Notes: generated by a model not told the origin, from the sequence alone. A stretch of 64,000 nucleotides of DNA from Candidatus Micrarchaeia archaeon (GCA_038881595.1 JAVZPM010000001.1:211562-275561); one strand, 5' to 3'. Positions 6,461-62,360 are shown, numbered from the stretch's first letter. Translations and numbers: made by a program.

Positions 6461-6503
6461 TTCTTATTTGTTTTGCATATTGAAAAATGATATAGAACTG
6501 TTG

Positions 6504-10214: not shown

Positions 10215-10239
10215 TTAAACATATATTATGTTGTCCTTT

Positions 10240-10362: not shown

Positions 10363-10416
10363 TTTTTTTCTTTAAGATAACGTTAATTTTAAATATCTAG
10401 CAATTATATTAACTTT

Positions 10417-30547: not shown

Positions 30548-31423
30548 TTATACTCCAAGAGTTACTCTTAAGAGATTTCTTATTCCAGGTGCAAGACCGA
30601 ATATAATTATTAGAAGGTATAGAAAATATCTTTCGTTTTCATTTTCAGCCTCTCTTTCTATAATTAAAGATGCAAAAATAGCAAAGAGAACTTTTATGAA
30701 TAGATAGATTATTGTTCCGTAAACAATGATTTCGCTAAAGAACCTCTCTACTACATGCTGACCAAAATAACAGATTCCTTTTTCTGTGCAAAGAGGGGAG
30801 AATCTATTGAAGATCTCTATGGCAACAAAGCTTGAAACACCATCAAGAGTATGAGCTGCAACTGCGATTCTTGGAAGTATTTTATTTAATTTATATCTTT
30901 CCATTATAAGATGAGAAAACACCATAATCATTCCTGAAAGAGCCAGTATAGTTATTAGATAAGTAGGATCTTGAATCATACTTAATACGATAATTAAGTG
31001 AGGAAGACACAACAATATACCTATTGCAGGATAGATTTTAGGCTGTTTAAGTTTGATGCTTATATATAGCGAAAGTATTGTTATCAATCCTATAATTACA
31101 TATATCCCAGGTGTGGCTGTAAGAAAACCATAGTTATATATTCCACTTTCAAGAAATGGACCAAATAGCCAATAGAATTGATGTTCTTTCCAATCAATGC
31201 CTGCTTCTGTAGCATCTGTAATAACTCTAACAGTTGATCCCAATATTATGAATGGAATAGTATAGATAATAAGTTCCTTTGTAAAGTATTTTTTGAATTT
31301 CTTATATATTAAAAAAGCTGCCACTATCGCAATAATTGCATAAACAAAAGTATTAATGATATTATATCCAGTGTGTTCAATTATAGGATTAATGAAATAA
31401 TCTTGTATAAAATTATCTATCAT
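30548..31423 (-). CDS. Polytopic membrane protein (7-8 TM), family not recognised, 291 aa
   Basis: The hydrophobicity pattern is the only evidence. Confidence 0.4.
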   Translation of the reverse strand: MIDNFIQDYFINPIIEHTGYNIINTFVYAIIAIVAAFLIYKKFKKYFTKELIIYTIPFIILGSTVRVITDATEAGIDWKEHQFYWLFGPFLESGIYNYGFLTATPGIYVIIGLITILSLYISIKLKQPKIYPAIGILLCLPHLIIVLSMIQDPTYLITILALSGMIMVFSHLIMERYKLNKILPRIAVAAHTLDGVSSFVAIEIFNRFSPLCTEKGICYFGQHVVERFFSEIIVYGTIIYLFIKVLFAIFASLIIEREAENENERYFLYLLIIIFGLAPGIRNLLRVTLGV

Positions 31424-31450
31424 TTTACCACTAATTCTTGCTAATTTATT

Positions 31451-32230: not shown

Positions 32231-32253
32231 TTTCCCATCTCGTTTTTATGCCG

Positions 32254-33060: not shown

Positions 33061-33158
33061 TTTTGCACCCTCAATCAGTTAATATCACTACTTGATTAGT
33101 ATTACTATTTTAATCTTATAATTCTATCTGCTACTTTAAACTTATAGTAAAGAGCAGT

Positions 33159-34277: not shown

Positions 34278-34344
34278 TATAAATTATTAAGATAAGTTTA
34301 AATTTTATTACTTACATATTATATTCTAAATATTAAGTGATTTT

Positions 34345-35901: not shown

Positions 35902-35965
35902 TAAGTTAAGATTATCAAATGCCAATAGAATTAAATTGATAGATGTTTGATAGGTATTTTATTAT

Positions 35966-36745: not shown

Positions 36746-36760
36746 CTTATCTACATTTTA

Positions 36761-37411: not shown

Positions 37412-37426
37412 TAGTTTTTTATCTTC

Positions 37427-44962: not shown

Positions 44963-44984
44963 AACAATTAAGGAGAGTCAGATC

Positions 44985-45857
44985 ATGGGATTTAGTGATA
45001 TACCGACATGTTTAAGCACTTGCACATTATCATCAGAGTATTCAAACTGGCTTCCTTTAGCGAGTATGATAATATTCATAGTTCTACTTGGAATATCTAT
45101 AGGCTTTATGATATCTAGGTTTCTAAATAGACGCGATTGGGAAGCAATGATAAGATTAGAATTATACCATCTATCAGTTGCAGTTATTTGGATCGGATTA
45201 ATCGCAATAGTTGCTAACATTACATGCTCGTTATCTTGCTCAATAACTAAAGACGAGAGTCCGTTCACTTCTTCAATTAATTATCTTAACACAATTAATT
45301 CAAAATTGAGTAGTATTATAAATTCCTTGTATGAGAAAGCAAAGAATATAAGAATAGAAACAGCATATTATGATGCATTTGCCAATTTCATGTATTCGCC
45401 AAAGGCAGGTTGTGATAATGTTGCATCAGTGTATGAGAATTTTTCATTCATGTTATCTCCATTCGTTGCCAGTCTTTTGATTCAGCAGTATGCTTTAATT
45501 TTTATAAGCCAGATTGCATTCACATATCTACTTCCTATCGGAATAATTCTTCGCTTGATTCCAGGGTTTAAAGATGCTTCTTCATATGTTATTGCTATTG
45601 CCTTTTCATTTTATATTATCCTGCCTTTAACTTATATTTTCGCGCAAAAGGCAACCGAAGGAATTTCACTATCTACTATTGATACAGATGCAAATGATTG
45701 CGTCTCTGCTAATGAAATTCAGACCATATTAACTGATGTTGGATTGATTTTGCCTCAGGCAGTATTCTTCCCTGCTTTAAGTAGCATTATTACAATTGGT
45801 GCAGCAAGAGCGCTTGCAGAGATATTTAAGTATGATTTCATTGAACTAAGGGGATAA
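44985..45857 (+). CDS. Paralog 2 of the membrane-protein family, about 290 aa (start taken at ATG 44985 preceded by AGGAGA; ORF-track start 44919 overlaps paralog 1)
   Basis: The W..E+TM element is RRDWEAMIRLELYHLSVAVIWIGL. The conserved TM motif is LRLIPGFKDASSYVIAIAFSFYIILPLTY. The C-terminus is RALAEIFKYDFIELRG. Confidence 0.55.
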   Translation: MGFSDIPTCLSTCTLSSEYSNWLPLASMIIFIVLLGISIGFMISRFLNRRDWEAMIRLELYHLSVAVIWIGLIAIVANITCSLSCSITKDESPFTSSINYLNTINSKLSSIINSLYEKAKNIRIETAYYDAFANFMYSPKAGCDNVASVYENFSFMLSPFVASLLIQQYALIFISQIAFTYLLPIGIILRLIPGFKDASSYVIAIAFSFYIILPLTYIFAQKATEGISLSTIDTDANDCVSANEIQTILTDVGLILPQAVFFPALSSIITIGAARALAEIFKYDFIELRG

Positions 45858-45858
45858 A

Positions 45859-47043
45859 TTGGATCTAGACAAGATAATTAATAAAGGCACATGCGATAGA
45901 AAGATAGCTATGGTAGTGTATGTTCTATTTTTATTTGTCTCATTTTCATTTGCAGCTCAAGATGTTTTTGGTTTTCATACAGATGTTGACTGGATTCTAA
46001 TCGCATATTTAGTTATACTTATTGTTGCGCTACTATTAGGAATCGCATTTATGATATCAAAAGTATTTGCAATGCATGAGTTAGAAGCATGGACAAGAGA
46101 AGAAGCAATGAATCTTATTATGTCAATTGCAATTCTTGTTTTATTTACTGCTTTTATTGGTGTAGCTGAACAAATAGCAAATTCTTTATCTAAAGATATT
46201 CTTTCTTCAAGCGTTTCTGCAAGTGCTTCAGGTAATATAAGTTATTGGCAATACATACCAAATGAAGGCAGATGGAAAACAATAGAAACTTCCAATCCAT
46301 CTTGTGAATACCCATGTTACATGTATATGGCAAGAGGCTTCTTAGGTTCTTTGTATGAAAAATATGGAGAATCTTTAAAGGGTATCGCGCAATACTATTT
46401 TGTTTCAGTTTTTTATTCCACCCAATCTGTGGGGTCTGGTGTTGATTTTACTTGGGGTAAATTTAAATTTGAATTTGGAATGGGATTTCCATTAAATGCA
46501 GGTTTAACTATCTATAACAATATACTAGCAACAGTAGTAAGCGAGTATTTGAAAATAATCACAGCTATAAAAATGCAGGAAATTGCTTTAGTTTATCTTT
46601 CATCTCTTGCAGGCATGTTCTTCATACTTGGGATAATATCACGTTCAGTTTGGTTTTTAAGAAAATTCGGCGGTCTGTTTGTAGCTGCAGGCATAGGTTT
46701 ATACTTAATATTTCCAATGGTTTATGTTTTAAGTTGGTACACGATTGACAGATCTGTAGTGATGTTCGAAGTGGATCTTCCAGAACCAGCAGCTTCGGAT
46801 GATCTGCTTTCATTCTTTACCGGTGGAATTGGAGGTTTAGGAAATGTTGATTTGTTATTTACAAAATATAATGAGAATGGATCTGTAATTTCAATCGGAA
46901 TGTTAGATGCATTAGGAAGGTCATACATCCCAATAATAGTAGTGCCAATCCTTGCGATTTTTACCACTCTTGGATTTATAAGACATTTCTCACCAATGAT
47001 TGGTGGAGATCCTGAAATAGCAGGTCTTACAAGAATTATTTAA
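45859..47043 (+). CDS. Paralog 3 of the membrane-protein family, 394 aa (TTG start after AAGGGG)
   Basis: A signal peptide (..FSFA|AQD) is followed by HELEAWTREEAMNLIMSIAILVLF, then SRSVWFLRKFGGLFVAAGIGLYLIFPMVY, and C-terminal FSPMIGGDPEIAGLTRII. Confidence 0.55.
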   Translation: MDLDKIINKGTCDRKIAMVVYVLFLFVSFSFAAQDVFGFHTDVDWILIAYLVILIVALLLGIAFMISKVFAMHELEAWTREEAMNLIMSIAILVLFTAFIGVAEQIANSLSKDILSSSVSASASGNISYWQYIPNEGRWKTIETSNPSCEYPCYMYMARGFLGSLYEKYGESLKGIAQYYFVSVFYSTQSVGSGVDFTWGKFKFEFGMGFPLNAGLTIYNNILATVVSEYLKIITAIKMQEIALVYLSSLAGMFFILGIISRSVWFLRKFGGLFVAAGIGLYLIFPMVYVLSWYTIDRSVVMFEVDLPEPAASDDLLSFFTGGIGGLGNVDLLFTKYNENGSVISIGMLDALGRSYIPIIVVPILAIFTTLGFIRHFSPMIGGDPEIAGLTRII

Positions 47044-47056
47044 GCATATGAATTAA

Positions 47057-48202
47057 GTGGATATTATGATGTTTAGTTTAAGTGAGTTTATGAAAAATAA
47101 TAAAACAAAGAAAAATGCAAATTCGATATTAGATCTATTTTCAAAAAGTTTAATTATGTTTTTCATCTTAATTTCAATATCCTTTGCTGCAACAGAATGT
47201 GGTTACTTTGGAACATATCTTTACAATAATGTTTGTGTTCCTGACCTATTAGTTAATTTAAGTACAATACTAATTTTAATCGGAATCGTAATAGGCTCAA
47301 TATTTTATGGACTGGGCATTGCATTAGAGCATACAAGAATTAAAGAATGGTCTAAAGAGTTTCTTTATCAAATGCTTGGTACAGCAGTAATTCTTTCTGT
47401 TTATCTAGGTCTCGTAGCTTCTTTAAACAGTTTTGCACCTGCAATTTATAATTCAAATCTAGCATATCCGGCTGAAAGCACTGTTCGTTCTCTTTCAGAT
47501 ACTAAATGGATAAACGTGCAATCACATGCTGAAAAATATGTAGATTGCCTTTTAAATTACACAAAAAACGCAACACTGGAAATAGTGGGGATTTCCTCCT
47601 CTTTATCTTCATTAGCATCTACTTCTATTCAATTAATTTCTGGTTCCTTCAGTAACTTTTATCCAATATTTCCAACTGGAGGGGGTCTGACTTCTATAAT
47701 GTCGGTTCTAATAGGGGCGCTTGCAACAACCATTATTCAGCTTAAACTCCAACTTGAAATACTAAAATTGAATTCTGCATTGTTTAGTATTGTGCTTCCA
47801 CTTGGATTGATATTAAGATCATTTCCATATACAAGAGGGGCTGGAGCAGCAATGATAGCAATAACATTTGGATTTACGATCTTTCTACCTATATTTTATT
47901 TGATCATAGAGGACATAGGTTATCATTTTTATCAAAAAGATGTATGTTCAATACATCCACCATCGATAGGATTTTTCCAGCTGGTAGGCATGGGAATAAA
48001 AATAGCGCAAAATGGAGCAATTGAAACGCTTCAAGATTACTTTGGAGTCGGAGGAGATTTTGAAAGCCTGACAACAGTTTTATTAATACAAGCTACTATT
48101 CTTCCATTTGTAGCTTATTTAGTAGTTCTTAATATAATTAAGCGGCTTGCAGAGGTGCTAGGTGGGGAGATAGATCTCAGCACATTGGTGAGATTGATAT
48201 GA
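47057..48202 (+). CDS. Paralog 4 of the membrane-protein family, 381 aa (GTG at 47057 or ATG at 47066)
   Basis: A signal peptide (..ISISFA|ATE) is followed by HTRIKEWSKEFLYQMLGTAVIL, then LRSFPYTRGAGAAMIAITFGFTIFLPIFY, and C-terminal LAEVLGGEIDLSTLVRLI. Confidence 0.55.
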   Translation: MDIMMFSLSEFMKNNKTKKNANSILDLFSKSLIMFFILISISFAATECGYFGTYLYNNVCVPDLLVNLSTILILIGIVIGSIFYGLGIALEHTRIKEWSKEFLYQMLGTAVILSVYLGLVASLNSFAPAIYNSNLAYPAESTVRSLSDTKWINVQSHAEKYVDCLLNYTKNATLEIVGISSSLSSLASTSIQLISGSFSNFYPIFPTGGGLTSIMSVLIGALATTIIQLKLQLEILKLNSALFSIVLPLGLILRSFPYTRGAGAAMIAITFGFTIFLPIFYLIIEDIGYHFYQKDVCSIHPPSIGFFQLVGMGIKIAQNGAIETLQDYFGVGGDFESLTTVLLIQATILPFVAYLVVLNIIKRLAEVLGGEIDLSTLVRLI

Positions 48203-49335
48203 AAAAGAGATTCGTTCATGTATTGCATTTAGCTTTGCTGCTTCTAATTATTCTATTTAATCCTGTGCATGCTCAAACAAATACTAATCAAGACAATGTG
48301 CCAAATGGTTGTGAAGTTGCGTTGCTTTTGGATTTTGGAAATCAAAGCAACAGTGCTATAGGCGTAGAACAGAATTGGAAATCTTTGTCCTTTATTGGAT
48401 TATTAGTTTCTTTATTCCTGTTAATTTTTGCATATTTAATAGGTAAATCTTTAGATTCCCCACAACTTATAGCTAGAGCTAAGACAGATATGATTCAGGT
48501 GGTTGTGACTGCAATAATGCTTGGAGTTCTTTATTCAATCTTATTCTTTATTTGCAGTATTGATGCGTCTCAATTTGGATTTAACTTTACTTCATTTTTT
48601 GATGGAGCAAGAATGTATCTTGAATATTCGAGGGCCTCAGCACTCAATGCATATCTTAAATGTACAAATGCAATGATGATCATAACTGGATTATCTACAT
48701 TCAATATAAACAATCCAAACTTTATAGACTTGGGTGCATTTCTACATATAGGGGTTTACTTTAAACCTTTTGCAGGTTATGGAATTACAATAGGTGCTCT
48801 TAACTGGTTCTCCAGTCTGGTTCAACTTTCATATTCATTAATTACTGGATATATTGTGGTTCTAAATGCGATTCAATTATATTTCCTTAATCTACTTCTT
48901 CCAGCAGGAGTAGTATTGAGGTGTTTTTCACCAACAAGAGATTTAGGCGGTGTCCTGATTGCAATAAGTGTAGGTTTATTCTTTTTCTATCCTTTACTGT
49001 TTTCATTTTCATACATGATTATAGGTCAACCAGATCCAAATGTAGGATTGCCAGACATGGATTGGGAGAGTGAGATAAATAGTGCTGTAGTTAAATCTGT
49101 AGCACTATCGTCAGCTCCTTTCGGTAGTCTTATAATTATCTATAATTCATTGTTCGGCAAAGGCGGAGAAGCCATAGATAGATTAAATGAGGCATATATC
49201 GCGACAGGCAGTGTGATTTTATATGTTTTTATATTACCTGCAATTAATTGGATTATCTTAGTAGCAATTGTCAGAGAATTAAGCAAGGCATTAGGCCAGG
49301 AAGTAGATATATCTGGTTTGGCAAGAATGATCTGA
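48199..49335 (+). CDS. Paralog 5 of the membrane-protein family, 378 aa (ATGA overlap with paralog 4)
   Basis: A signal peptide (..FNPVHA|QTN) is followed by QLIARAKTDMIQVVVTAIMLGV, then LRCFSPTRDLGGVLIAISVGLFFFYPLLF, and C-terminal LSKALGQEVDISGLARMI. Confidence 0.6.
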   Translation: MKKRFVHVLHLALLLLIILFNPVHAQTNTNQDNVPNGCEVALLLDFGNQSNSAIGVEQNWKSLSFIGLLVSLFLLIFAYLIGKSLDSPQLIARAKTDMIQVVVTAIMLGVLYSILFFICSIDASQFGFNFTSFFDGARMYLEYSRASALNAYLKCTNAMMIITGLSTFNINNPNFIDLGAFLHIGVYFKPFAGYGITIGALNWFSSLVQLSYSLITGYIVVLNAIQLYFLNLLLPAGVVLRCFSPTRDLGGVLIAISVGLFFFYPLLFSFSYMIIGQPDPNVGLPDMDWESEINSAVVKSVALSSAPFGSLIIIYNSLFGKGGEAIDRLNEAYIATGSVILYVFILPAINWIILVAIVRELSKALGQEVDISGLARMI

Positions 49336-49349
49336 AAGACGGTGAAATT

Positions 49350-50600
49350 ATGTTTGTAAATCCGCAAAAAAGTAAAATAAAATCAAATATTCATTCATTA
49401 TTTCTACAGATAATACTATTTTTATTTATTTTAAATCAAGTGAGTGCACTTTCATGCAGCGTTACAGATCAAAATTGCCCAAGCGGACAGATATGTGATA
49501 ATGGAGAATGCAGGGAATGCCTTACAAGTGCAGAATGCTGGAGCAAAACTCTAATTAGATCCACTCCAATAGGAGGGATTTCACCTTGGGTTAGTATATC
49601 TGTTATAGTTTTACTTATATCGCTCCTAGGTGTTGCAATATTTTATATGATAGCTTACGCATTCCAATCTGATCAGTACAAAAGAATTGCATTCGCTGAA
49701 CTGATGCAAGTATTGGCTTCATTTCTATTAATTGCTTTCTTATTCGGATTTGAAATATTTGAAACAGATATGTTAACGAGATTGGAAAAAACTTCTGGAG
49801 CGATTACATCTGCATTAGTTCTTCAATCCCAAGGAGCATCTCCTAATATCGCACTTTCTGGAAATGTTTATATTAATCCATTTGATGTTTCATATGCATT
49901 TCTTAGAAATATGATAACTTGCGTTCAAAACAAATTAAAGACAACATATGAGAATTCAAAAGCAATACAAACAATAATTAATTTAAATATAGACGTACAA
50001 GTGATTACACCTGGAAAGGTGAAATTTTCAGTTCCAAACCCTCTTGCTTTTACATCTCTATCAGAAACTGCAGCAAAGTACGAATTTCAAGCAAGTGAAC
50101 TTACTTGGCTTATGATATTCCTTTACGCCCAGATAGCAGTTCTGAAATTTATAGAAACATCTATGTTTACAGTCTTTTTGCCAATAGGGTTAATACTTAG
50201 AGCATTTCCACCTACTAGAGGAGCAGGGGCTGTGCTAGTTGCGATAGCAATAGGATTTTATCTAATCTATCCTTTGACATTCACTTTATTATATACTGGA
50301 ACACCTAAGCAGATAGAAGGATGCAATCTTCAAGTTGCATTCGATTACTCTCAATTGGAAAAGACATGTCCATTAAACATTGGTGCAACCACTCAGATAA
50401 TTTCTTCTGCATCTGATCTTGCTGCAACATTAGACGCAGCTGTACCGCAATTACAGGCAGGGACATCTTCTATTAGATTCACCGCATTCTTGTATATGCT
50501 TATTTCATTAGGTGTCACATTTATATTTGTCCGTTCATTGTCAAGCATATTAGGTGCAGATATTTCAGAGATAGGAAGAACAATGTTAAGATTATTATAA
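49350..50600 (+). CDS. Paralog 6 of the membrane-protein family, about 416 aa (start at ATG 49350; ORF-track start 49248 overlaps paralog 5)
   Basis: A signal peptide (..LNQVSA|LSC) and a CxxxxCxxxxCxxxxC exo segment are followed by QYKRIAFAELMQVLASFLLIAF, then LRAFPPTRGAGAVLVAIAIGFYLIYPLTF, and C-terminal LSSILGADISEIGRTMLRLL. Confidence 0.55.
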   Translation: MFVNPQKSKIKSNIHSLFLQIILFLFILNQVSALSCSVTDQNCPSGQICDNGECRECLTSAECWSKTLIRSTPIGGISPWVSISVIVLLISLLGVAIFYMIAYAFQSDQYKRIAFAELMQVLASFLLIAFLFGFEIFETDMLTRLEKTSGAITSALVLQSQGASPNIALSGNVYINPFDVSYAFLRNMITCVQNKLKTTYENSKAIQTIINLNIDVQVITPGKVKFSVPNPLAFTSLSETAAKYEFQASELTWLMIFLYAQIAVLKFIETSMFTVFLPIGLILRAFPPTRGAGAVLVAIAIGFYLIYPLTFTLLYTGTPKQIEGCNLQVAFDYSQLEKTCPLNIGATTQIISSASDLAATLDAAVPQLQAGTSSIRFTAFLYMLISLGVTFIFVRSLSSILGADISEIGRTMLRLL

Positions 50601-50622: not shown

Positions 50623-51399
50623 ATGGATAAGAAAAAGAAATTTGAAGCTGGCGTTTCATCAGTTCAAAACAATACTAAAAAAGATTTCATTAAGCAGTTT
50701 ACCTTTTATTTTGCAATTATATTTGGACTAATGATAATAGCCTACCTTCTTGCAATTCTTCCATCTTTGTTGGCAAAAAATTCTCCAAAAGTTGAACAAA
50801 CAGAATTATTTATAGAAGATTATTCTTGCAATTCAAGTGTCACAAAGGATTCTATTGAATACAATGTTACATATCTGATTATAAAAAATGGAACGCAAAT
50901 TGGAACCCTAGAATATAATTTTTCTAAAACTGGCTATGGTTTAATTAAAAAAGAAATAAGCACGATAGATTTCACAAAGTTAAAAGATTATTCTCAAGCT
51001 ATTAAAAATTCAAATGTTTCACTTTTATCATCTGCGATTACAATAATAGAGACTATTTATGATTTAGATTATAATTGTAAAAAATCTTCTTATATATTGA
51101 TTTTAGGAAACTCAACTTATAATTATTCTGGAGAGTGCAGTCCTCCAGACATTCCCTTCAAAATATGTGAGCAAAATATGAAAGAATTATTAAATGAAAA
51201 AATAGAAGCAGGAGCATTTACATTTAATGCAACGAAATATGAATATACTCACTCACAAATGATTCAAGGTCTGAAAGAAACACAAACTTTATTTATTTGG
51301 TTTTCAGATCTTCCATTTCCAATAAAAGTAGGTGATTCAGAATTTTATTTGATCCTTTCAAATTATTCAAAAAACAATATCAATAATGAAAATAAATAG
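50623..51399 (+). CDS. N-terminally anchored (single TM) extracellular protein, 258 aa
   Basis: The TM is FTFYFAIIFGLMIIAYLLAILPSLLA. The remainder is Asn/Ser/Thr-rich with four Cys. It lies between the paralog array and the giant protein. Confidence 0.45.
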   Translation: MDKKKKFEAGVSSVQNNTKKDFIKQFTFYFAIIFGLMIIAYLLAILPSLLAKNSPKVEQTELFIEDYSCNSSVTKDSIEYNVTYLIIKNGTQIGTLEYNFSKTGYGLIKKEISTIDFTKLKDYSQAIKNSNVSLLSSAITIIETIYDLDYNCKKSSYILILGNSTYNYSGECSPPDIPFKICEQNMKELLNEKIEAGAFTFNATKYEYTHSQMIQGLKETQTLFIWFSDLPFPIKVGDSEFYLILSNYSKNNINNENK

Positions 51400-51484: not shown

Positions 51485-54400
51485 ATGAATAAATCTGAAA
51501 TGAAAAAAGAAATTAAAATCAAACCTTCCTCTTTTTCAAATATTATGGTTTTTCTGATCATCTTTTCTTTGATGTTTATTCTTGTCTCTGGATGCATCGA
51601 ATTAAAGCCAAGGGAAGGGATAAGTACCACAGTTCCAGTTACAGTAACGAAAGGAAGTGATGTCTGTGTTGGTTACAATGAATCTACCTGCGGTGCTTTC
51701 TTAAAGGAAAAAAGAACTGCAATTTCTGATTATATTTGTAAAGGACCTATCGGTCCTTCTTATTCAAAGATGGACGAAGTAACTTATTCTCTTTCAGTTG
51801 AAAAAGGTTGGAGTTGTGAGGAAACAAAAACATATCTAGTTTTAGCAGGAAATAACTATATATTGTCAGGTTCAGGTCATATGGGTAATCCACATGGTGG
51901 TAGCATAACATTAGAAGATTCAAGAAATGTAGTATCACCAATATCTTATGGAATGAATAATCTAACTTTGAAATGTTATGTGAATGTATCTGTTAGCGTT
52001 TCAAAAGGTAAATATGAGAGGGGTTCATTTACCTTGAAATTTGATGGCTCATCTGATATCTTATCTCCAGGAGACCGTTTTGATGGACAATACTCATTTT
52101 TCGTACTACCATTAACTTTAACTCAAGAAAATAACAAATTAGTTGGAAATCTTAGTTTTTTAGGTACTTGGACAGTTACTGGAAAAGAATACGGTAGTTG
52201 GCCAAATAAAAAACACAAATCAGACATGGACGTTTCTTACTTTATTTCTTGTACTCCTTTTGCAAGCTACAATATTAATTGGAGATGTAAAAATACATAT
52301 ACTTTAGAATCATATGATTTTGTAAATTGCAGCTATGATGAATTTTCAACATTCCAGGGTGGAAGAACATTCCTTGATAACAATACTCCATTCAGCAAGC
52401 TTAGCAACTATATTCAATCATATTATGGGACTTACTCTTATAATCCAATTACTAAAGAAACAAAGCCAGCTGGAAAAATTCAGGTTCCATTCTTTATGTT
52501 AGGTCAAGGTCCATCATTCCAGGATTATGAAGAGGCAAAGAAGCTATGTGTCCCATGGAAAGAAACGATAGTAAATGTTTCATTAGGGAACACTACATTT
52601 GATCCACCGTTTTTGACAATACCGGCTGGTCTAGAGTTATGTATTGATAATAAAGACAATAAGAGGCATGATATAACTATAATCAATCTTCAGGATCAAA
52701 GTATAATAAAACAATACATTCTTCAGCCAAAGCAATTTTCGTGCTATCTACCTTATGAAGGCTTTTATCACATAAAAGATTCAAATGGGGACTATGCTTA
52801 TTTATCAGTACTAAAGGCAACAGATACAACTCAAATTTATATAGGGCGTAACATTGTTCCTAATTATACAGTAGTTAATGAAGGAGGATTTGTCAATTTC
52901 AGTCTTATCGAAAGAAAAGAGCATAACTTGAGTATGAGAAGTGTGAATAGATTTGATGATTATATCTATGAAAATAATTTTACTCTCAATCTTTCAAATC
53001 CAGTTGAAACAATAAGAGCACCACAAACAGGAGAGTATAGGATTAATGATATCACAACAGATAAAACAAGTTATTTATTTGTTCAGTCTCCGCTTCAGAG
53101 ATTTTTATTTAAGAGGGATGGAACAATTGATCCAGGATATGAAATATATAGACCGCTTGGAGATTTGATTTGTTTTAGAAGCGAAACTGAAGGTTTAAAC
53201 ATCTCAATTTCAAGATACACAGAAACAGAAAATGGATATGAATGGATATGGCTGACTAATGAAACATTGTCTACAAATTCATATTGCTGCATTCAAGGCG
53301 CGTTACCTGGAAAATATCAGGGAATAACAACGGATGGAAGAGTTGCAAATTGGACGATAGGAAGTGGAAAGCCTTCTGCAATAGTTTCTATTCAGCCGAT
53401 TGGTTTTGAACCTGAAGAAGTAGAAAGTCCTCCAGGAACAAAGATATGTTGGGTAAATCCATCAGCAATATCAAGAAATATTATAACAAAATCATCATCA
53501 GGAAAGACATTTTTCTCAGGCCAAATTCCACCATTCTCAGATAATGTTTGTTGGCCAACTATGAACAAGACAGATTCATATGTAACTACATTTGTACCTA
53601 ACTTAGATGTGAGGAACATTGTTAATATTAAAGAGGTCGATTCAAGAAACATCCAAATACTCTCGGGTGGTGCAGGCTTTGATACTATCTCATTAATTGT
53701 AAAACCTGGCTCTCAAATATGTTGGATTAATAACGACAATAAAAATCACACCTTAAAAGATGAAAATGGAAACTACATACTCTTAGCTCCATCCCAAACA
53801 AATTGTATAGATAAGACTACTATGCAGGAAGGAAATATTTATACACGCCAGCTGGATGAAAAAGAGATTTATTCAGATGTTGGAGTTATAGATGGTAAAG
53901 GCGCAATTTTGTCTCCAAGAGGTCCTATTCCATTTTCATTATTTGTAAATCCACCAAATGTTAATATGACTCAATCAGGAGAATTATATATTACATCTCC
54001 TTCATATTTCAAGATTATAAATAAACAGAGCGTTCCATCGGAATTATATGAGATTTCATACATCATTTTATCAGCCAACTCAACTGGATTGGCAGATATA
54101 GTAAAAACCGAAAATGAAATTACTATAATTAGTTCTCCAGTTAAGAGCTATACAAAGTTATTGCTTTATGTAGAAAATACTGATGATAAAAATCATACTA
54201 TAAGAGTAGAATCAAACGGAGATGAAATTAATATTTTGCCGAACTCATTTTATTTATTTGAAATTAGCCAAAGTACAGTATTAACAGATTTAACTGTTAA
54301 AGAAAATTTGACTAGGGGTGGAATCACAAATCAAACTATAATAAACGCTTTGTCACAAATTCCGATAAATATAATAGGACCTTCAGAGATAAAATTAAAT

Positions 54401-57400
54401 AAATCTGGTTCTAATGGAGATTCATTAATATTGGCTGCTCCAATCGAACCTTATACTTCAATACTTTATGAAAATAATACAAACAAGACAATCGTGATTA
54501 CTTTTGCAGATACAAATGAATTCATACTAAAGAACCCATTGAACAACCAAACATTAGACCTTCCAACTCAAGTTATTCATGGAGATCTATCTTCTCAAAT
54601 TCTTTACGATATGAGAAAATATGCAGATGAAGGAGCAATGTCATTGCTTATTCCTTCATTCCATAATGTCACAGTAAAGTTACATTCCTCTGTTTTCTCT
54701 CCATCTGAAGCATTAATACCTGCAGGAAGCACAATTACATTTACTAATAAAGATGTAATAGATCATACAATTGATTTAATTAAAAATGAAAGTGATATCA
54801 TCTCTTCAAGATCTTTTACCCTTCTACCCTTGCAATCAAATTCAACTTCAGATACACCAAAGAATACAACATTTACTTTTTATGATCAGCTTTCTAATAT
54901 GAAAGGAAATATCACAACCATTGCTTATGATGCAAATATTGGGATAATATCAACACTAATTTATCCAGAATATGGAATGGTTGCAGTTGGCAGACCCGTT
55001 AAATTCAATAATTATGATTCAGATTCGGATTACAGGGTTGAGATTAAACTTACAGATGATTTAAACATCGAACATACATATAGCTTAAACCTTCCTAAAT
55101 ATACAAATGGAATTCCAGGGTTTGCAACTTGGATTCCAGACAAGGCTGGAAATGCAACTTATATAGTTAGAAATAATACATTCATTGTTGGAACTGGTAA
55201 TATAATTGTAAGGAATTCAATTATCAATATTTCTATTAGAAATGGGGAGTTTGAAACGAAATCAATCGCTGTTGACCATAATAGTAAGGTATGCTTTATT
55301 CCAGACTCACCGAGAAAAATCTCAATTACTAATCTAGATACTGGTGAAAAGATAGCTGAAAGAACTATTTATCCATTAGGTATTCAAGCAACAGATTTAA
55401 GTAGTGCTTGTAAAAGAATTTATAACTGTTCTGCAAAACAGCAGACTGGGGATTATGGGTGTATAGGAATAGTAAACGAGTCAGATCCTTCTACATACTG
55501 CTCTTATTACTTAACTAACCCTTCAATAGCATGTAAATTAGATAATAATATTTCATGCATTGTAAAAGACCAATATTCAAGAGATTTAGAATGTACGACA
55601 GATTATTCTAAAGATACTCAACCTGCATTGCCAGGAATTCAACCACAATGTTTGTTCAAAGCAAGATTGGATGGAGAAGCATGCAATGGTGGTTCTGTAA
55701 TTAAGAATTCTTCTTTAGCTTCGATAATTAATTGTTCAGTTTCAAATAACGGTCAGCTTCAATTTAACTATTTTGAAGGAAAAGAAAAAACAGATACTTC
55801 TAATTTGTTATGCAATGTTCAAAAATCTGATAATACTGTGTCATGCATTCCAACAGGATTATACTCAGACGTAGGTTGCATCAAAAATTCATCAGCAGAT
55901 TCTTACTGCTATTATACACCTTCACCATTAACATCTCTAGAAAAGTCTAATCCATATACATTAACTGATAATCGTTTCTGTTCAGTAACAACTGCCCAAA
56001 GAACTGAAAGATATTATACAACATATGCATGTGATATAGGTTACGATGGTGTGTGTACATGCCCAACTGATAAAATGTGTGGTGCCTTACCATGCGATGG
56101 AAGCAGTGTTCTTGCAAGTATGTTTTATAAAAAATCTTCTTCTTGTACATTATTTGATAGGAATGCATTAAATTGTTCTGGAAATAGAGTAGTTGATACA
56201 TGTTTAAAAACAGGACAATATAATTTCGTTTTTCCAGCTTTAGATAATCCAAACTTTACTATATATATGAAACCAGGTGTAGGTTTCAAGGCATGCAAAT
56301 GCTATGCAGCTAACCAAAGAATAGTTACATATGCAAATTCATGTAGTGTTAAGACTGGAGGAAGTTCAATCACTCCATTTCCAAGCAATTGTATTTTGCA
56401 GTCTGAGAAATGTATGTTCTCTTCACCATCTGTATTTTTGTGTAGTAGTGAAGAAAATTGTCCATGTAAATTTGGATGTGGAAAGAAAGTTAACTATTCA
56501 ACACTAGGAAACATAGATTGTATTCAAACCCCTGGAGGTTGTAGAATAATATCGAATTATAATTTAGATAATGGTAATTACTGTAAATATGTATATACTC
56601 AAACATGCACACCTAAACAAGGATATGAAGATAAAGTATCATGCAAATTTGATGGAACATCATGTTTAATATCAGAAGGAAAGAAAATAAGAGATGATGG
56701 TTCACATTGTAAGTTGGATTTATTTTCATGTGAACCATCTTATTTAGGTGTTAATTGCAGTTTTGATGCATCAACACAATCATGTAAAGTTAGTTCTATC
56801 GAGCAATTCTGTTTCACACCAGCTTCAACTTATATCGTTGAGGATGTAGATACTGGAAATATAATGATAGTTGAAGGTTACGATAGATATACTCCATTAG
56901 AAATAGATATTCAAAAATCTATGTTCACTCCTTCCTTTGTTACCACATCCCCATTAAGTGATGTATGTTTCCAAAGTCTTGATGGAAAAATGCACAGAGT
57001 TTTAGTTCCAGAGATAGTAAAAAGTGAAGGTTTTATCGATGTTTATCAAGATAGGCAAACATGTCTTAATTTCCCATACAATTCAGAACCATGGACTGTA
57101 AGGCTGCAGGACAAGCCAGATGTTGCATTAGGCATTAAATCAATAAAACAAGATATAGAAGTAGTTGTCAAGTCACAGATGTTTGATCCTTCTGATCTGA
57201 TTCTTAGACCCAATACATCTATTACATTTATTAACACTGATTCAGAACCGCATCAACTTAACAAAGCAATACCATCTACAAATTTTGCTAAACTTATTTT
57301 ACAAAATAACATTTTAACAAGCGATTCATTCTTTTACAATATATTAAAAGCAGAATGGATGGATAAGATCGAATGTAAGGATGATTCGGACTGTCCGGAA

Positions 57401-59860
57401 GGTTCATTCTGCGATGTAGAAAAAAGATGTCATTCTATTAAATTCTGCATGAGGGATGAGGAGTGTCCATCTCCATCTATTTGTCATAATTATCATTGTA
57501 TTCTTACAAAACAGTGCCAAACTGATTTAGATTGTGGAGTTAATAGTAAATGTATTGATGATGGAACTGGAATTAAGAAGTGTATAACATTAGATATTCA
57601 ATGTTCAGATTCATTTGATTGCTACTCTTCAGATCCAAATTCAATTTGTATTAATAACAAGTGCACACGCATATTAAATTGTACTAATTCATTGGATTGT
57701 CCATCTGGATTTGTATGTTCATCTCAAATATGCACCATGATTAAAAATTGTACAAATAATAGCGAGTGCCCACCGAATTCAGTATGTAATCAAGGTAAAT
57801 GCTCTATACCAACAATCAATAATTGTAGCTTAGACAGTGATTGTCCGAATGGAATGTACTGCACTATTGTAGATAGAACTGAAGAGGGCGAAGATGTAAA
57901 GGTATGCACTTCAAGTCCATGCATTTCAAATTCGGATTGTAGCGAAGAGAGAAGTACAGCATGTATAACCAACTTCATTACTGGTGAAAATAATTGTACG
58001 CTTTATAATTCATCTTATGCAGAACCTTTATGCACAAGCGATGCAGACTGCTCTGAAGGTGGTTGCATTGATGGAAGATGTGTTATTTCAAAGAATTGTT
58101 CACATGATTCTGAGTGTGGCATTATAAATGGTATTCAATCAGTATGTGAATCTTCTGTCTGTAAGATCCCAGTTAAATGTTCTAATTTAGCAGATTGTAG
58201 ATCTGGAGAAATATGTCAAGATGGATTCTGCAGAATATTCCATAATAAGATTTGCACTACAGATTCAGAATGTAATACTGATGAAATTTGCAAAGAAATG
58301 AAGTGTATAAAGAAGCAGAATTGTTCTTCTACTACAGTTTGTAATTTATTACAAAGTGGTGCAGCCTGTACAAATGCTTCTTCATCTTCTCCGGCATTCT
58401 GTCAATCATCTGCAAATTGTACAAGCGATGCATTTTGTGCATCGAACCAGTATTGTGATCTAGGTTTAAAGCAGTGTATTACTTATCCTAAGACAACATG
58501 TGGTTCGCCAGTATATGGATCGGATGTTAGTCAGGTTAATGTTTCATTTAATCTACCATCATCTACATATAAAGCATATTTAATTTATTCTTTCAACGAT
58601 AATGGAAATATATTATTAAATGGACAAACTATTTTACCGACAACTAAATTTAGATGCCAGTATTCGACAGTGTCTGGTGTTACATATATTGATAACTATT
58701 CTCAAACTCAACAATGGAAAATACCTTTAGGTTTGCTTAAGTTAGGAAATGAAGAAAATAATATGTCAATTACAACATGCAGTTGTTCAGGTCAAAAAGG
58801 ATTTAACATTTCAATACTTTATTATTATGTTTCCCCAGAAGGAATCAGACAAGAGTCAATTATAATAGATCCAAATTCAAAAATTCAGATCTTTTCACCA
58901 CAACAATCTGAAGAACTAGTATATATTGATAATAAGACAAAGAACGTGCTTCCAATCTCTGTGAAGTCCATTGTAGATATAGCAGGAAATGTTAATTGTT
59001 CAGCTGACTTATCTTCAATGGCTCTGGCAATTGCAAGCTATGAAAGACTTGATTATGCTACCCAGGCATGCGATTCAGGAAAGCAGATTGAATGTGCATC
59101 TTATAATCCATACGGTCCTGCAACAGTAACATTCTTTGCCTCAGAATCTGGATTAAACCTTTCAAATGAATCTGAAAGACTGTGTGCATTCCAACAACTT
59201 GCATCTGTAAAGAATATATGCCCAAATTGTACAACTGTTCTAAATGTCGGAGATGTAAACATTACACAGCTTAATAATATTTTAATTTCAGCAAATTCAA
59301 CCCTAATATTTGGTAAAAATGCAATCGATTTTGTAGATGTAATAGGCTATGATGAATTCCTTAACAATTATCCATCTTGTAGCTTTGAAGACATAATGAA
59401 TTCAATAGTAAACAAATCAAAACTTGGTTTATACAATTACACAAAGCCATCAATAATAATGAGATTTGGATTAAAGGATGGAGTCTCATTAAGTAATCCA
59501 GCATGCAACTGGACAGATGAATCTATTATAACAGCATACCAAGATTTCTATGGAATATGGATTCCAATTCTTGCAGGTTCTGGTGTGCTTGGAACAGCCC
59601 AATACTGCTTGACAGATCCATGCCCGTCATTTGATTTCTATGGTCTTCTTACCTCAGGAAAGACAAACAAGCCATGGACAGATGCATGGTTCAGGGAAGG
59701 ATGCGGAAGATATTATTATGCAGCTGAAGGATTATCATTTACAACCTTTTCAATGAAGGAAACAAACTATTCAATGTGTGATCCATCAAAGATGCTTGCC
59801 TTACTTCAGACTGTTCAATGTGCGGTTGGCAAGTATACATTAAAATCAGGAACAAGTTAA
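51485..59860 (+). CDS. Giant (2791 aa) secreted Cys-rich surface protein with lipobox-like signal and tandem CxxDxDCPxGxxC repeats
   Basis: N-terminus MNKSEMKKEIKIKPSSFSNIMVFLIIFSLMFILVSGC has an archaeal lipobox VSGC. Large beta-rich regions lack Cys. Then come more than 100 Cys in the C-terminal 900 aa, including about 14 repeats such as CKDDSDCPEGSFCDVEKRC, CTNSLDCPSGFVCSSQIC, CSLDSDCPNGMYC and CSNLADCRSGEICQDGFC. There is no C-terminal TM. Confidence 0.65.
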   Translation: MNKSEMKKEIKIKPSSFSNIMVFLIIFSLMFILVSGCIELKPREGISTTVPVTVTKGSDVCVGYNESTCGAFLKEKRTAISDYICKGPIGPSYSKMDEVTYSLSVEKGWSCEETKTYLVLAGNNYILSGSGHMGNPHGGSITLEDSRNVVSPISYGMNNLTLKCYVNVSVSVSKGKYERGSFTLKFDGSSDILSPGDRFDGQYSFFVLPLTLTQENNKLVGNLSFLGTWTVTGKEYGSWPNKKHKSDMDVSYFISCTPFASYNINWRCKNTYTLESYDFVNCSYDEFSTFQGGRTFLDNNTPFSKLSNYIQSYYGTYSYNPITKETKPAGKIQVPFFMLGQGPSFQDYEEAKKLCVPWKETIVNVSLGNTTFDPPFLTIPAGLELCIDNKDNKRHDITIINLQDQSIIKQYILQPKQFSCYLPYEGFYHIKDSNGDYAYLSVLKATDTTQIYIGRNIVPNYTVVNEGGFVNFSLIERKEHNLSMRSVNRFDDYIYENNFTLNLSNPVETIRAPQTGEYRINDITTDKTSYLFVQSPLQRFLFKRDGTIDPGYEIYRPLGDLICFRSETEGLNISISRYTETENGYEWIWLTNETLSTNSYCCIQGALPGKYQGITTDGRVANWTIGSGKPSAIVSIQPIGFEPEEVESPPGTKICWVNPSAISRNIITKSSSGKTFFSGQIPPFSDNVCWPTMNKTDSYVTTFVPNLDVRNIVNIKEVDSRNIQILSGGAGFDTISLIVKPGSQICWINNDNKNHTLKDENGNYILLAPSQTNCIDKTTMQEGNIYTRQLDEKEIYSDVGVIDGKGAILSPRGPIPFSLFVNPPNVNMTQSGELYITSPSYFKIINKQSVPSELYEISYIILSANSTGLADIVKTENEITIISSPVKSYTKLLLYVENTDDKNHTIRVESNGDEINILPNSFYLFEISQSTVLTDLTVKENLTRGGITNQTIINALSQIPINIIGPSEIKLNKSGSNGDSLILAAPIEPYTSILYENNTNKTIVITFADTNEFILKNPLNNQTLDLPTQVIHGDLSSQILYDMRKYADEGAMSLLIPSFHNVTVKLHSSVFSPSEALIPAGSTITFTNKDVIDHTIDLIKNESDIISSRSFTLLPLQSNSTSDTPKNTTFTFYDQLSNMKGNITTIAYDANIGIISTLIYPEYGMVAVGRPVKFNNYDSDSDYRVEIKLTDDLNIEHTYSLNLPKYTNGIPGFATWIPDKAGNATYIVRNNTFIVGTGNIIVRNSIINISIRNGEFETKSIAVDHNSKVCFIPDSPRKISITNLDTGEKIAERTIYPLGIQATDLSSACKRIYNCSAKQQTGDYGCIGIVNESDPSTYCSYYLTNPSIACKLDNNISCIVKDQYSRDLECTTDYSKDTQPALPGIQPQCLFKARLDGEACNGGSVIKNSSLASIINCSVSNNGQLQFNYFEGKEKTDTSNLLCNVQKSDNTVSCIPTGLYSDVGCIKNSSADSYCYYTPSPLTSLEKSNPYTLTDNRFCSVTTAQRTERYYTTYACDIGYDGVCTCPTDKMCGALPCDGSSVLASMFYKKSSSCTLFDRNALNCSGNRVVDTCLKTGQYNFVFPALDNPNFTIYMKPGVGFKACKCYAANQRIVTYANSCSVKTGGSSITPFPSNCILQSEKCMFSSPSVFLCSSEENCPCKFGCGKKVNYSTLGNIDCIQTPGGCRIISNYNLDNGNYCKYVYTQTCTPKQGYEDKVSCKFDGTSCLISEGKKIRDDGSHCKLDLFSCEPSYLGVNCSFDASTQSCKVSSIEQFCFTPASTYIVEDVDTGNIMIVEGYDRYTPLEIDIQKSMFTPSFVTTSPLSDVCFQSLDGKMHRVLVPEIVKSEGFIDVYQDRQTCLNFPYNSEPWTVRLQDKPDVALGIKSIKQDIEVVVKSQMFDPSDLILRPNTSITFINTDSEPHQLNKAIPSTNFAKLILQNNILTSDSFFYNILKAEWMDKIECKDDSDCPEGSFCDVEKRCHSIKFCMRDEECPSPSICHNYHCILTKQCQTDLDCGVNSKCIDDGTGIKKCITLDIQCSDSFDCYSSDPNSICINNKCTRILNCTNSLDCPSGFVCSSQICTMIKNCTNNSECPPNSVCNQGKCSIPTINNCSLDSDCPNGMYCTIVDRTEEGEDVKVCTSSPCISNSDCSEERSTACITNFITGENNCTLYNSSYAEPLCTSDADCSEGGCIDGRCVISKNCSHDSECGIINGIQSVCESSVCKIPVKCSNLADCRSGEICQDGFCRIFHNKICTTDSECNTDEICKEMKCIKKQNCSSTTVCNLLQSGAACTNASSSSPAFCQSSANCTSDAFCASNQYCDLGLKQCITYPKTTCGSPVYGSDVSQVNVSFNLPSSTYKAYLIYSFNDNGNILLNGQTILPTTKFRCQYSTVSGVTYIDNYSQTQQWKIPLGLLKLGNEENNMSITTCSCSGQKGFNISILYYYVSPEGIRQESIIIDPNSKIQIFSPQQSEELVYIDNKTKNVLPISVKSIVDIAGNVNCSADLSSMALAIASYERLDYATQACDSGKQIECASYNPYGPATVTFFASESGLNLSNESERLCAFQQLASVKNICPNCTTVLNVGDVNITQLNNILISANSTLIFGKNAIDFVDVIGYDEFLNNYPSCSFEDIMNSIVNKSKLGLYNYTKPSIIMRFGLKDGVSLSNPACNWTDESIITAYQDFYGIWIPILAGSGVLGTAQYCLTDPCPSFDFYGLLTSGKTNKPWTDAWFREGCGRYYYAAEGLSFTTFSMKETNYSMCDPSKMLALLQTVQCAVGKYTLKSGTS

Positions 59861-61282: not shown

Positions 61283-61320
61283 TCAATCATCATTGTTTTT
61301 TTGCAATAGAATAAGAATGA

Positions 61321-61440
61321 TAATGTCAGCAGCAATGCATCTTCCCCTCCGACAGGAGAGTACAAATAACATCGTGAACCGGCTTAGCTTCCGAGTTCGG
61401 AATGGGATCGGGCGTTTCCCGGTTCCTATGGCCGCTGACA
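61321..61440 (-). rRNA. rrf: 5S ribosomal RNA (solitary, not linked to 16S/23S)
   Basis: Reverse complement TTGTCAGCGGCCATAGGAACCGGGAAACGCCCGATCCCATTCCGAACTCGGAAGCTAAGCCGGTTCACGATGTTATTTGTACTCTCCTGTCGGAGGGGAAGATGCATTGCTGCTGACA has the universal 5S blocks (GCGGCCATAG, CCCATTCCGAAC, GGAAGCTAAGCC). A 10-bp helix I joins the two ends. The minus-strand ORF 61283-61609 is an artefact. Confidence 0.85.
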
Positions 61441-61454
61441 ATATAATATAGTGT

Positions 61455-61472
61455 GTAATATATTTAAATGTT
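61455..61472 (-). promoter_or_regulatory. TATA-like element upstream of the 5S rRNA gene
   Basis: Minus-strand tttaaatatatt is centred about 25 nt upstream of the 5S 5' end. Confidence 0.4.
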
Positions 61473-62360
61473 TCTGAAATATTATAGCTATAAAGCAAAC
61501 TGTTTTTATTTGAAGGTGAGGTTATTTCAAAAATAATAAGGTATGGAAAGGATCTTGCTATAATCATACCAGAAGAATTAGTAAAAAAGCTTGATCTAAG
61601 ACCAGACACACCTATTAGAATTTATGAGATAACCGCGGGAACTATAGCAATCGAAAAAGTAAAACTCCTTCCTTTATCTGAATCAGACATCAACATTTTG
61701 AATAAGCTTCTTCAGATTAAATTCGAAGAAAGAACTCCTGAGGTTGTAAGAAAATCATTCTCTCAAGAAGAATTGAAACTACTTGACGAACTTGTGAAGA
61801 AACACCTTGTGAATATTTACTATGGTGGGAAATATCTAAAGACAGGTGTTTATCAAGTTCCTAACCTTGTTTACAGACAGCTTCTTGAAAAGAGGCAAGA
61901 GACAGCCAAACCAAAGGAAGGTATGGAAGAGAAAGAGCAAATTTCTCAACCAAAGGAGCAAGAAAAACAGAAGAAAGAATCAAAAGAAAAGAAAGAACAG
62001 AAAGAGTTCAAAAAAGAGGAGACGGACCCAATAAAAAGACTGAATAAGAATGGCTATCTTGTTCTTCAATCCGAAGCAGATGCAAGAGAGATCTCAAAGC
62101 TTCTTGAGGATAAAATTCAGCAAAATCAAGTTACAGGAATAAGAGGATTCGATAAAAAATACTATCTTGTTAAGAATTCTTTTGTTCTTAAATTTCAATC
62201 CAAGATAAAATCAGTATTGAAATCTGGCCCTAAACAGGCTGACAAAATAGCTGAAGCATTAGGCATAGAAGAAGAGGCAGCAATCGCACTTCTCACAGTT
62301 TTAAGAGAAGAAGGAGAAATAATAGAAAAAAGAAAGGGAACTTTTTCCTTGATAGATTGA
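61467..62360 (+). CDS. AbrB/SpoVT-like (swapped-hairpin) N-domain fused to C-terminal winged-helix domain; 297 aa if ATG 61467 is used (ORF track starts at TTG 61698, 220 aa)
   Basis: The reading frame is open from ATG 61467: ..EGEVISKIIRYGKDLAIIIPEELVKKLDLRPDTPIRIYEITAGTIAIEKV. That is the AbrB/MazE-type pattern, cf. KVRKIGNSLAVTIPKEIAEALGLKEGDEVEI. A charged linker follows, then C-terminal DKIAEALGIEEEAAIALLTVLREEGEIIEKRKGTFSL (wHTH). The 5' end would overlap the 5S promoter region. Confidence 0.5.

Follow-up and report, generated by a model that had tools for sequence, protein, structure and literature searches.

Tandem four-cysteine modules of DUF7107/DPY-like type as a probable stalk element in a giant lipobox-bearing surface protein of a Micrarchaeia archaeon

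This study examined a 64,000-nucleotide stretch of DNA from a Candidatus Micrarchaeia archaeon (GCA_038881595.1, JAVZPM010000001.1:211562-275561; hereafter the window) and, within it, a tandem array of 14 four-cysteine (Cys) modules encoded inside a gene for a 2791-residue protein. The reading favoured here, with a probability of about 60%, is that the array forms a rigid, disulfide-stabilised stalk or spacer module in a lipobox-anchored surface protein. Judged by its profile matches, the repeat type is already catalogued (DUF7107, TIGR04201, DPY) and abundant in bacteria; what appears to be new is the host protein and the lineage that carry it. The array had been pointed out by a model working from the nucleotides without database searches (the sequence-only reading), which proposed an adhesin stalk or a ligand-binding array, and the stalk is the best-supported function for it. 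The gene and the parts of its product are laid out as follows, in coordinates of the window and amino acid (aa) positions of the protein.

51485..59860, + strand: gene of the 2791-aa surface protein that contains the array (309 kDa, isoelectric point 5.0; translation of the open reading frame, ORF)
51524..51595, + strand: hydrophobic signal segment ending in the lipobox V-S-G-C (aa 34-37, Cys37); the only hydrophobic 19-mer
52565..55384, + strand: run of cupredoxin-like beta-sandwiches, aa ~361-1300, with almost no Cys (Pfam, strand motifs)
55385..56914, + strand: region rich in irregularly spaced Cys, aa 1301-1810 (no fixed period; 43 Cys in aa 1301-1800)
56915..57361, + strand: last cupredoxin-like domain(s), aa 1811-1959, directly before the array (Cupredoxin_1, strand motifs)
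57374..58498, + strand: array of 14 tandem four-Cys modules, DUF7107/DPY-like, aa 1964-2338, 56 Cys (unit parsing)
58499..59857, + strand: conserved C-terminal domain, aa 2339-2791, 453 aa (identity; ratio of nonsynonymous to synonymous substitution rates, dN/dS)

The sequence-only reading had placed about 14 consecutive, strictly spaced Cys units at 57370-58490. Parsing gave exactly 14 units within a few bases of that span, and all of the peptide strings quoted in support of it are present. The units, of 22-37 aa with exactly four Cys each (C1 to C4), start at nucleotides 57374, 57446, 57515, 57602, 57680, 57749, 57824, 57920, 58031, 58097, 58178, 58253, 58322 and 58418 (aa 1964, 1988, 2011, 2040, 2066, 2089, 2114, 2146, 2183, 2205, 2232, 2257, 2280 and 2312). 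Typically, a unit reads C-x5-C-x5-C-x4-C followed by a linker of 5-8 aa: the C1-C2 spacing is x5 in all 14 units, the C2-C3 spacing is x5 in nine (range 4-9), the C3-C4 spacing is x4 or x5 in nine (range 4-14), and the linkers comprise 4-11 residues, mostly 5-7. The complete Cx5Cx5Cx4C pattern is exact in 5 of the 14 units, the remainder varying through loop insertions. Of the 56 Cys-Cys gaps, 42 are 4-5 residues long, compared with a mean of 8.2 (standard deviation 2.7) and a maximum of 20 in 20,000 permutations of the array's own residues, and the Cys autocorrelation shows maxima at lags of 6, 12 and 23, bearing out the claimed periodicity.

The Cys framework is also retained across orthologs. 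In an alignment of six orthologous regions, 55 of the 57 Cys between aa 1964 and 2339 are invariant, the non-Cys identity in the array being 31-34% for orthologs that are ~50% identical, and the unit number is 14, in register, in all of the orthologs aligned. C2 is preceded by D/E in 60 of the 84 units of the six orthologs and followed by P in 30, and most units have D/N/S at position -3. No tandem repeat was found in the array at the DNA level, and the mean non-Cys identity among unit cores is 20%, so the array is old and not a recent amplification; with its constant unit number, it is stable as well. Against two close relatives the dN/dS of the array is 0.17-0.23, and the region is therefore translated and under purifying selection. 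Evolution within the protein is fastest in the array loops (31-50% identity); positive selection on them was considered and rejected at the region level (dN/dS 0.26-0.35).

Scanned alone, the region matches the Pfam family DUF7107 (PF23416) in six stretches at 57.6 bits (E 1.6e-15) against a gathering threshold (GA) of 24.6. The same family is matched by all six ortholog regions, and the ortholog P0003 carries a precomputed PF23416 match; in the scan of the full-length protein the score was 19.1 bits, under the threshold. The DUF7107 model has 48 positions and spans two consecutive four-Cys units. The NCBIfam model TIGR04201 (Myxo_Cys_RPT, cut-off 25 bits) reached 22.1 bits in the region alone (four stretches) and 15.3 bits in the whole protein; on these scores the array would be a relative of that family and not a scoring member. 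Dumpy_DPY (PF21164, threshold 27 bits) did not match the window region at E<=10 and matched three of the six orthologs weakly (best E 4.8e-4), and the best Protein Data Bank (PDB) sequence match of the array profile was the 24-residue DPY module 1OIG (E 0.12).

The families suggested for a profile check in the sequence-only reading fared differently from one another: Dickkopf_N (PF04706) matched units 1-2 marginally, at 26.8 bits against 25 in the region alone (19.7 bits in the whole protein), whereas EGF, TNFR and DUF4215 gave no Pfam match at E<=10 in the six orthologous regions. The Dickkopf_N match probably reflects a similarity of Cys patterns that lets related models cross-match. Besides DUF7107, Dickkopf_N and Dumpy_DPY, the orthologous regions gave only weak Pfam matches to EB (E 0.022) and, in one ortholog, to Toxin_23 (E 0.057). 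No significant match to LDL-receptor class A (LDL-A) or any other Ca2+-binding family was obtained, a PDB match to the VLDL receptor being weak (E 0.24).

An exhaustive HMMER search of representative proteins with the six-ortholog array profile returned 1695 relatives at E<=1e-3 and 316 at E<=1e-10. The best non-ortholog relatives with a named source are from Myxococcota, including P0008 and P0009, which also have lipobox-like N-termini and score 199 and 140 bits for TIGR04201. The top relatives are strong members of the catalogued families, with up to 277 bits for DUF7107 and up to 199 bits for TIGR04201. All eight of the top matches that were scanned in return (P0008, P0009, P0011, P0013, P0015, P0019, P0021 and P0029) carry DUF7107 at 63-277 bits, and P0008, P0009 and P0029 pass TIGR04201 at 55-199 bits. 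Additionally, P0011 and P0021 pass Dumpy_DPY on the same residues as DUF7107, suggesting that DUF7107 is essentially a pair of DPY-like units. The description of the repeats as eukaryote-style did not hold in light of these Myxococcota relatives, of the placement of the region in DUF7107 and of its resemblance to TIGR04201.

The module type also occurs elsewhere among archaea. The unrelated contig L008, archaeal by its neighbouring genes (L35Ae, primase small subunit, MJ0538), encodes side by side at 6001-12106 two proteins, of 1210 and 813 aa, that are positive for DUF7107/DPY. The use of the module by archaea therefore extends to at least this second contig. With these two proteins and a single such module in M6, a membrane protein encoded beside the giant gene, the claim that the repeats are unusual in archaea is only weakly tenable. 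A scan of a genome collection with two unit-1 peptide patterns, which does not amount to a census, located two Micrarchaeia loci, two Myxococcales loci and one Uhrbacteria locus. A word-indexed protein search with the array gave no matches, though phmmer with the same query recovered P0001-P0005 at E 1e-58 to 1e-212; negatives of that search are unreliable for low-complexity, Cys-rich queries. A literature search for DUF7107 found no paper mentioning the family.

The units were described in the sequence-only reading as Cys-knot-like. A cystine knot is excluded by the four Cys per unit, as three disulfides and six Cys would be needed, and the units are best described as putative two-disulfide hairpin modules in the DPY/CREMP layout. 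By analogy with that layout, a C1-C3/C2-C4 pairing is predicted for each unit, which would give up to 28 disulfides from the 56 Cys of the array. The only variable Cys in the ortholog alignment, C2183 and C2194, are C1 and C3 of unit 9; both are lost together in P0003, P0004 and P0005, with C2 and C4 kept, and such a joint loss is what the C1-C3/C2-C4 pairing predicts. No further informative case of Cys co-loss was found among 2346 unit matches to a single-unit hidden Markov model (HMM), in which local alignments end at a missing Cys. An AlphaFold2 (AF2) model of the 386-aa array, built from six sequences, had a mean predicted local distance difference test score (pLDDT) of 54.7, so that only its secondary structure is usable; it places a helical turn between C1 and C2 over the D-x-D/E motif in 13 of 14 units and a C3/C4 hairpin in all 14.

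Several characterised modules resemble these units. The DPY consensus is Cx5Cx5Cx4C with C1-C3/C2-C4 pairing and a loop above a small hairpin (PMC12723725). The typical spacing in the array is identical to this, the N/D-S-D/E-C-P motif around C2 occurs in both, and unit 6 (CTNNSECPPNSVCNQGKC) is identical to the 1OIG core at 9 of 18 positions; as in Dumpy, the two-disulfide modules occur in tandem in a giant extracellular protein (PMC12723725). Dumpy differs in that its DPY modules alternate with EGF modules in an animal protein, whereas the archaeal units follow one another head to tail, and the sequence match is weak; common descent of the two is plausible, not demonstrated. In CREMP, an avian eggshell membrane protein, tandem two-disulfide modules with C1-C3/C2-C4 pairing and few inter-module contacts form extended chains (PMC12723725). 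The loop-over-hairpin layout of CREMP, shared by Follistatin-N and the N-terminal subdomain of EGF, equals the secondary structure predicted here for each unit, but the CREMP spacing is Cx4Cx5Cx8C and no sequence match to the array was detected. The Dickkopf N-terminal domain shares the C-x-x-D-x-D/E-C start; however, DUF7107 scores 30 bits higher on the same residues, and neither a colipase-fold C-terminal domain nor a Wnt context is present here. For DUF7107 itself, a family of unknown function, the setting found here is an archaeal lipobox giant in which the array lies between cupredoxin-like domains and a novel C-terminal domain.

The functional comparison that bears most directly on a stalk is with TraA of Myxococcus, in which a PA14-like recognition domain is proposed to be carried on a stalk of Cys-rich repeats, and which stays functional when up to three of the first four repeats are deleted (PMC6372800). 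TIGR04201 and TraA (NF033759) share with the array a Cys-rich unit of ~20-25 aa, and TraA positions 346-408 align weakly with the window region. The dispensability of TraA repeats is mirrored by the natural presence or absence of the array within the giant family, described below. TraA differs in that it resides in a bacterial outer membrane, bears a sorting tag at its C-terminus and has its recognition domain N-terminal to the stalk; in the giant protein the anchor is N-terminal, the conserved domain C-terminal, and there is no TraB partner. A membrane-exchange function is not implied for the giant protein.

From its N- to its C-terminus, the giant protein comprises the N-terminal anchor, the cupredoxin-like run, the irregular Cys region, one or two further cupredoxin-like domains, the array and the C-terminal domain. 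Micrarchaeia metagenome-assembled genomes (MAGs) and metagenomes are the source of its full-length orthologs (90, 78, 47 and 50% identity), and one further ortholog is shorter (2529 aa, 50% identity). The closest database relative, of the same length and 90% identical, is named 'hypothetical protein [Candidatus Micrarchaeia archaeon]', and the Micrarchaeia MAG loci DRTY-7 and JZ-3 show 85% identity across the array. The composition is generally low in complexity and rich in S, N, D and T, with 72 N-x-S/T sequons in the whole protein, 10 of them within the array. Relative to the loci L001 and L002, the dN/dS of the gene is 0.10-0.23 depending on the region.

The N-terminal 1900 aa had been taken for a low-Cys stack of beta-sandwich or beta-helix domains. 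Repeated cupredoxin-like beta-sandwiches were indeed found there, both by Pfam (Copper-bind 30.4 bits, GA 21.2; Cupredoxin_1 35.6 bits, GA 27) and by the strand motif '(V/I)x(F/W)xNxDxxxH', which recurs at aa 385, 654, 745, 894 and 1084; in the last domain(s) before the array, strand motifs lie at aa 1827 and 1913 and the best Cupredoxin_1 stretch at aa 1888-1925. The low Cys content applies up to about aa 1300 (0-4 Cys per 100 aa over aa 1-1300, and zero in aa 801-1200) but not to aa 1301-1800, where the 43 Cys are irregularly placed; regular C-x5-C units are absent from aa 1301-1810 save a few isolated ones, and the region also occurs in P0006 and P0007, the distant relatives described below. 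When the type-1 copper ligands (His, Cys, His, Met) were sought in the cupredoxin-like domains, the obligatory Cys was lacking, and a type-1 copper site is impossible in the Cys-free aa 801-1200. The JGI label 'plastocyanin' of P0004 and P0005 is therefore not a functional name, and the NCBIfam plastocyanin model scored 23.3 bits against a cut-off of 87.85. The domains are most likely structural beta-sandwiches, not electron carriers. No VWD/C8-type multimerisation domain was found in Pfam scans of the giant protein.

The N-terminal hydrophobic segment is a probable lipid anchor by prediction. Its V-S-G-C fits the archaeal lipobox definition [LVI][ASTVI][GAS]C (PMC12462473), the lipobox 'SGC(I/V)E.KPREG' recurs in P0001-P0003, and similar G-C motifs are present in P0006 and P0007; a hydrophobicity scan of the giant protein found no C-terminal membrane anchor. 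A candidate lipidation enzyme for the anchoring of the protein is encoded within the window:

30548..31423, - strand: AliA/AliB-family (PF01889, DUF63) membrane protein (PF01889 155.9 bits, GA 25)

The AliA/AliB family lipidates archaeal lipoproteins, its function coming from Haloferax, and has been reported in DPANN archaea (PMC12462473).

Conservation within the protein is highest in the C-terminal domain (65-85% identity, dN/dS 0.10-0.12), which is probably the distal working end. Sequence searches of Pfam, NCBIfam and PDB gave no match to it. With an AF2 model of pLDDT 53.5, Foldseek matched glycoside hydrolase family 2 (GH2) beta-glucuronidases (E 1.6e-7, template modelling (TM) score 0.25) and also GH53 galactanases and lectin, PA14 and carbohydrate-binding module (CBM) sandwiches. 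Tentatively, the model suggests a TIM-barrel glycosidase (GH2/GH53-like) preceded by a beta-sandwich of sugar-binding type.

The modular behaviour of the array is seen in two distant members of the giant family. P0006 (4559 aa; contig L007, 3128-16807) and P0007 (2968 aa) correspond to the window protein at the N-terminus, in the cupredoxin-like part and the irregular Cys region, and again in the C-terminal domain (38% and 32% identity, respectively), and have ~30-43 aa in place of the window's ~376-aa array; P0006 carries BNR/NHL propeller repeats elsewhere in the protein. As both keep the flanking regions without the array, the array is an insertable module, and from these comparisons the giant family appears to be modular, with conserved ends and exchangeable middle parts.

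Combined, these results lead to the proposed role. Each unit would consist of an N-terminal loop with a short turn over D-x-D/E-C-P, resting on a beta-hairpin that bears C3 and C4, and 14 such modules would form an extended, glycosylated stalk cross-braced by up to 28 disulfides. The many disulfides may render the stalk resistant to heat, acid and proteases. With lipid anchoring at the N-terminus, the array would occupy a distal position and would keep the C-terminal domain, for which carbohydrate binding or a glycosidase-like nature is a tentative suggestion, at a distance from the cell membrane and from the anchored N-terminal part, presumably presenting it toward a host cell or substrate.

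Several points weigh against this reading. The anchor is predicted, and if the segment is simply cleaved, the protein would be released or held by a partner, rendering 'distal' and 'proximal' meaningless. The identity of the C-terminal domain is tentative at a pLDDT of 53.5 and a TM score of 0.25. The disulfide pairing draws on analogy and a single co-loss event, the extended shape is a proposal, and Foldseek with the low-confidence array model found nothing in PDB at E<1. The change between family members may have run either way, by acquisition of the array in this clade or by its loss from P0006 and P0007. Finally, the acidic residue before C2 could signify ion or ligand binding instead of structure.

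That last point leads to the alternative in which the array itself is a multivalent ligand-, glycan- or Ca2+-binding surface, of LDL-A or Dickkopf-like type, adhering to the host envelope. The acidic positions -3 (D/N/S) and -1 (D/E) of C2 are conserved in most of the 84 units, the marginal Dickkopf_N and weak VLDL-receptor matches point the same way, the loops diverge faster than the remaining protein, as host-specific contact surfaces would, and the similar module of M6 could pair with the array. However, the acidic residue before C2 is equally conserved in structural DPY modules, LDL-A and Ca2+-binding families lack a significant match, the loop dN/dS carries no signal of diversifying selection, and P0006 and P0007 do without the array yet retain the conserved C-terminal domain; a binding array is accordingly held to be unlikely. 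A role in cross-linking or fibre formation, as in Dumpy, CREMP and Chironomus silk, with filaments or a matrix, possibly intermolecular disulfides and a link between symbiont and host, would fit the occurrence of the nearest structural analogues, DPY and CREMP, in filament- and fibre-forming proteins (PMC12723725) and the fibrous connections to the host that transmission electron microscopy (TEM) revealed in a Micrarchaeota strain cultivated from a hot spring (PMC8784108). All 56 Cys lie in complete four-Cys units, though, leaving no unpaired Cys for intermolecular links, the array makes up just 375 of the 2791 aa of a multidomain lipobox protein, and VWD/C8-type multimerisation domains were not found there, so that such a role is improbable.

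The two remaining explanations carry very little weight. If the units were mini-domains of knottin or protease-inhibitor type that inhibit or poison enzymes of the host, the 22-26-residue Foldseek superpositions on squash trypsin inhibitors and cyclotides (root-mean-square deviation (rmsd) ~1 Å, probability 0.6-0.7) and the weak Toxin_23 match of one ortholog would find an explanation, but the E values of these structural matches exceed 2 and the model behind them is of low confidence, the threaded knot needs six Cys where the units have four, and no inhibitor family passes any threshold; this explanation is very improbable. The idea that composition or chance produced the pattern, or that the ORF is no real gene, draws on nothing besides the generally low-complexity, S/N/D/T-rich composition and can practically be dismissed given the 42 short gaps against a shuffle maximum of 20, the 55 of 57 Cys kept in orthologs, a dN/dS well under 1 and the significant Pfam family match. 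The stalk or spacer reading is therefore retained as the preferred one.

The giant gene is the last of eight genes on the same strand, preceded by M1-M7, whose main features are as follows.

43337..50600, + strand: six paralogous genes for polytopic membrane proteins, M1-M6, preceding the giant gene (all-against-all blastp)
49455..49538, + strand: DPY-like Cys module, CSVTDQNCPSGQICDNGECRECLTSAEC, with six Cys, just after the M6 signal sequence in the N-terminal ectodomain (motif scan)
50623..51399, + strand: M7, 258 aa, N-terminally anchored, between M6 and the giant gene (translation)

M1-M6 matched one another in the all-against-all comparison at E 1e-4 to 1e-14, with a related C-terminal motif in M1 and M3-M6, and belong to no Pfam or NCBIfam family. 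Their order and sizes are kept in L006, the contig of P0004 (922-9789), at 60-76% identity, which exceeds that of the giant protein (~50%), and they are partly conserved in L007 (1-3095), beside P0006. In L006, the position of M7 is occupied by a homolog (26% identity, E 5e-26). M6 is 100% identical to a protein of another Micrarchaeia MAG, and of its 37 homologs, four are named to taxon, all Micrarchaeia/Micrarchaeota, a fifth being labelled 'uncultured archaeon'. The M6-type N-terminal Cys module is present in 24 of the 37, most of them reading 'C-x5-C-P-x-G-Q-x-C-x4-C-R-x-C-x-TSAEC', and gives a weak TIGR04201/TraA match. This conserved, Micrarchaeota-specific cluster of eight genes is a more novel element than the repeat itself, and M1-M7 may constitute an undescribed cell-surface or membrane complex. 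A bolder and rather doubtful proposal is that the giant protein, M1-M6 and M7 together form a Micrarchaeota-specific host-contact apparatus, with M1-M6 as a base on which M6 displays its single DPY-like module, the stalk projecting a lectin/glycosidase-like head for binding or cutting glycans of the host surface, and gain or loss of the array tuning its reach to the host envelope.

Elsewhere, the window shows itself to be archaeal, encoding Orc1/Cdc6 and ribosomal and translation proteins of archaeal/eukaryotic type; its G+C content is ~31%. Three tRNA genes detected by Rfam and missed by ARAGORN (5150-5285, 10240-10362 and 22077-22187) are 111-136 nt long, a length that suggests introns, and a tRNA-splicing endonuclease gene lies near them (15008-15529, - strand). 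Another Cys-rich protein, of 466 aa, is encoded at 16039-17439 (+ strand), has a different repeat, (V/F)xCPxGQxCdpxtGxC, with weak FOLN and FIMAC matches, and lies in a stretch of locally higher GC (0.39 vs ~0.31); possible readings are a gene acquired by horizontal transfer or one more secreted, disulfide-rich protein. Synteny with the genes just downstream of P0006 in L007 is seen for the block at 30548-37999 (AliA, D-tRNA deacylase, Pus10, LysRS, KsgA, Yip1 and DUF655). The mechanically called ORF 61283..61609 is probably no gene, since a stand-alone 5S rRNA gene (61324-61439, - strand) lies inside it. Large ORFs without a family were found at 10417-14694 (+ strand, 1425 aa), 40097-43288 (- strand, 1063 aa) and 59900-61282 (- strand, 460 aa), the sole similarity of the 1063-aa ORF, a weak one, being to the GAS microtubule-binding family (E 0.0035).

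Little is known of the molecules by which Micrarchaeota, like other DPANN archaea, make contact with the host archaea to which they live attached. Cultivated Micrarchaeota attach to their hosts via direct surface contact or fibrous structures (PMC8784108). Their surface-layer (S-layer) protein is a different one, ~100 kDa and sulfur-poor. The giant protein is a candidate for DPANN-host contact with a definite architecture, namely a predicted lipid anchor, a putative disulfide-braced stalk and a conserved distal domain, and it extends to archaeal use the two-disulfide module of fly Dumpy and of myxobacterial stalks of the TraA type. The repeat itself is not new; the main value of the finding is in annotation and in the experimental handle that it would provide on DPANN-host attachment.

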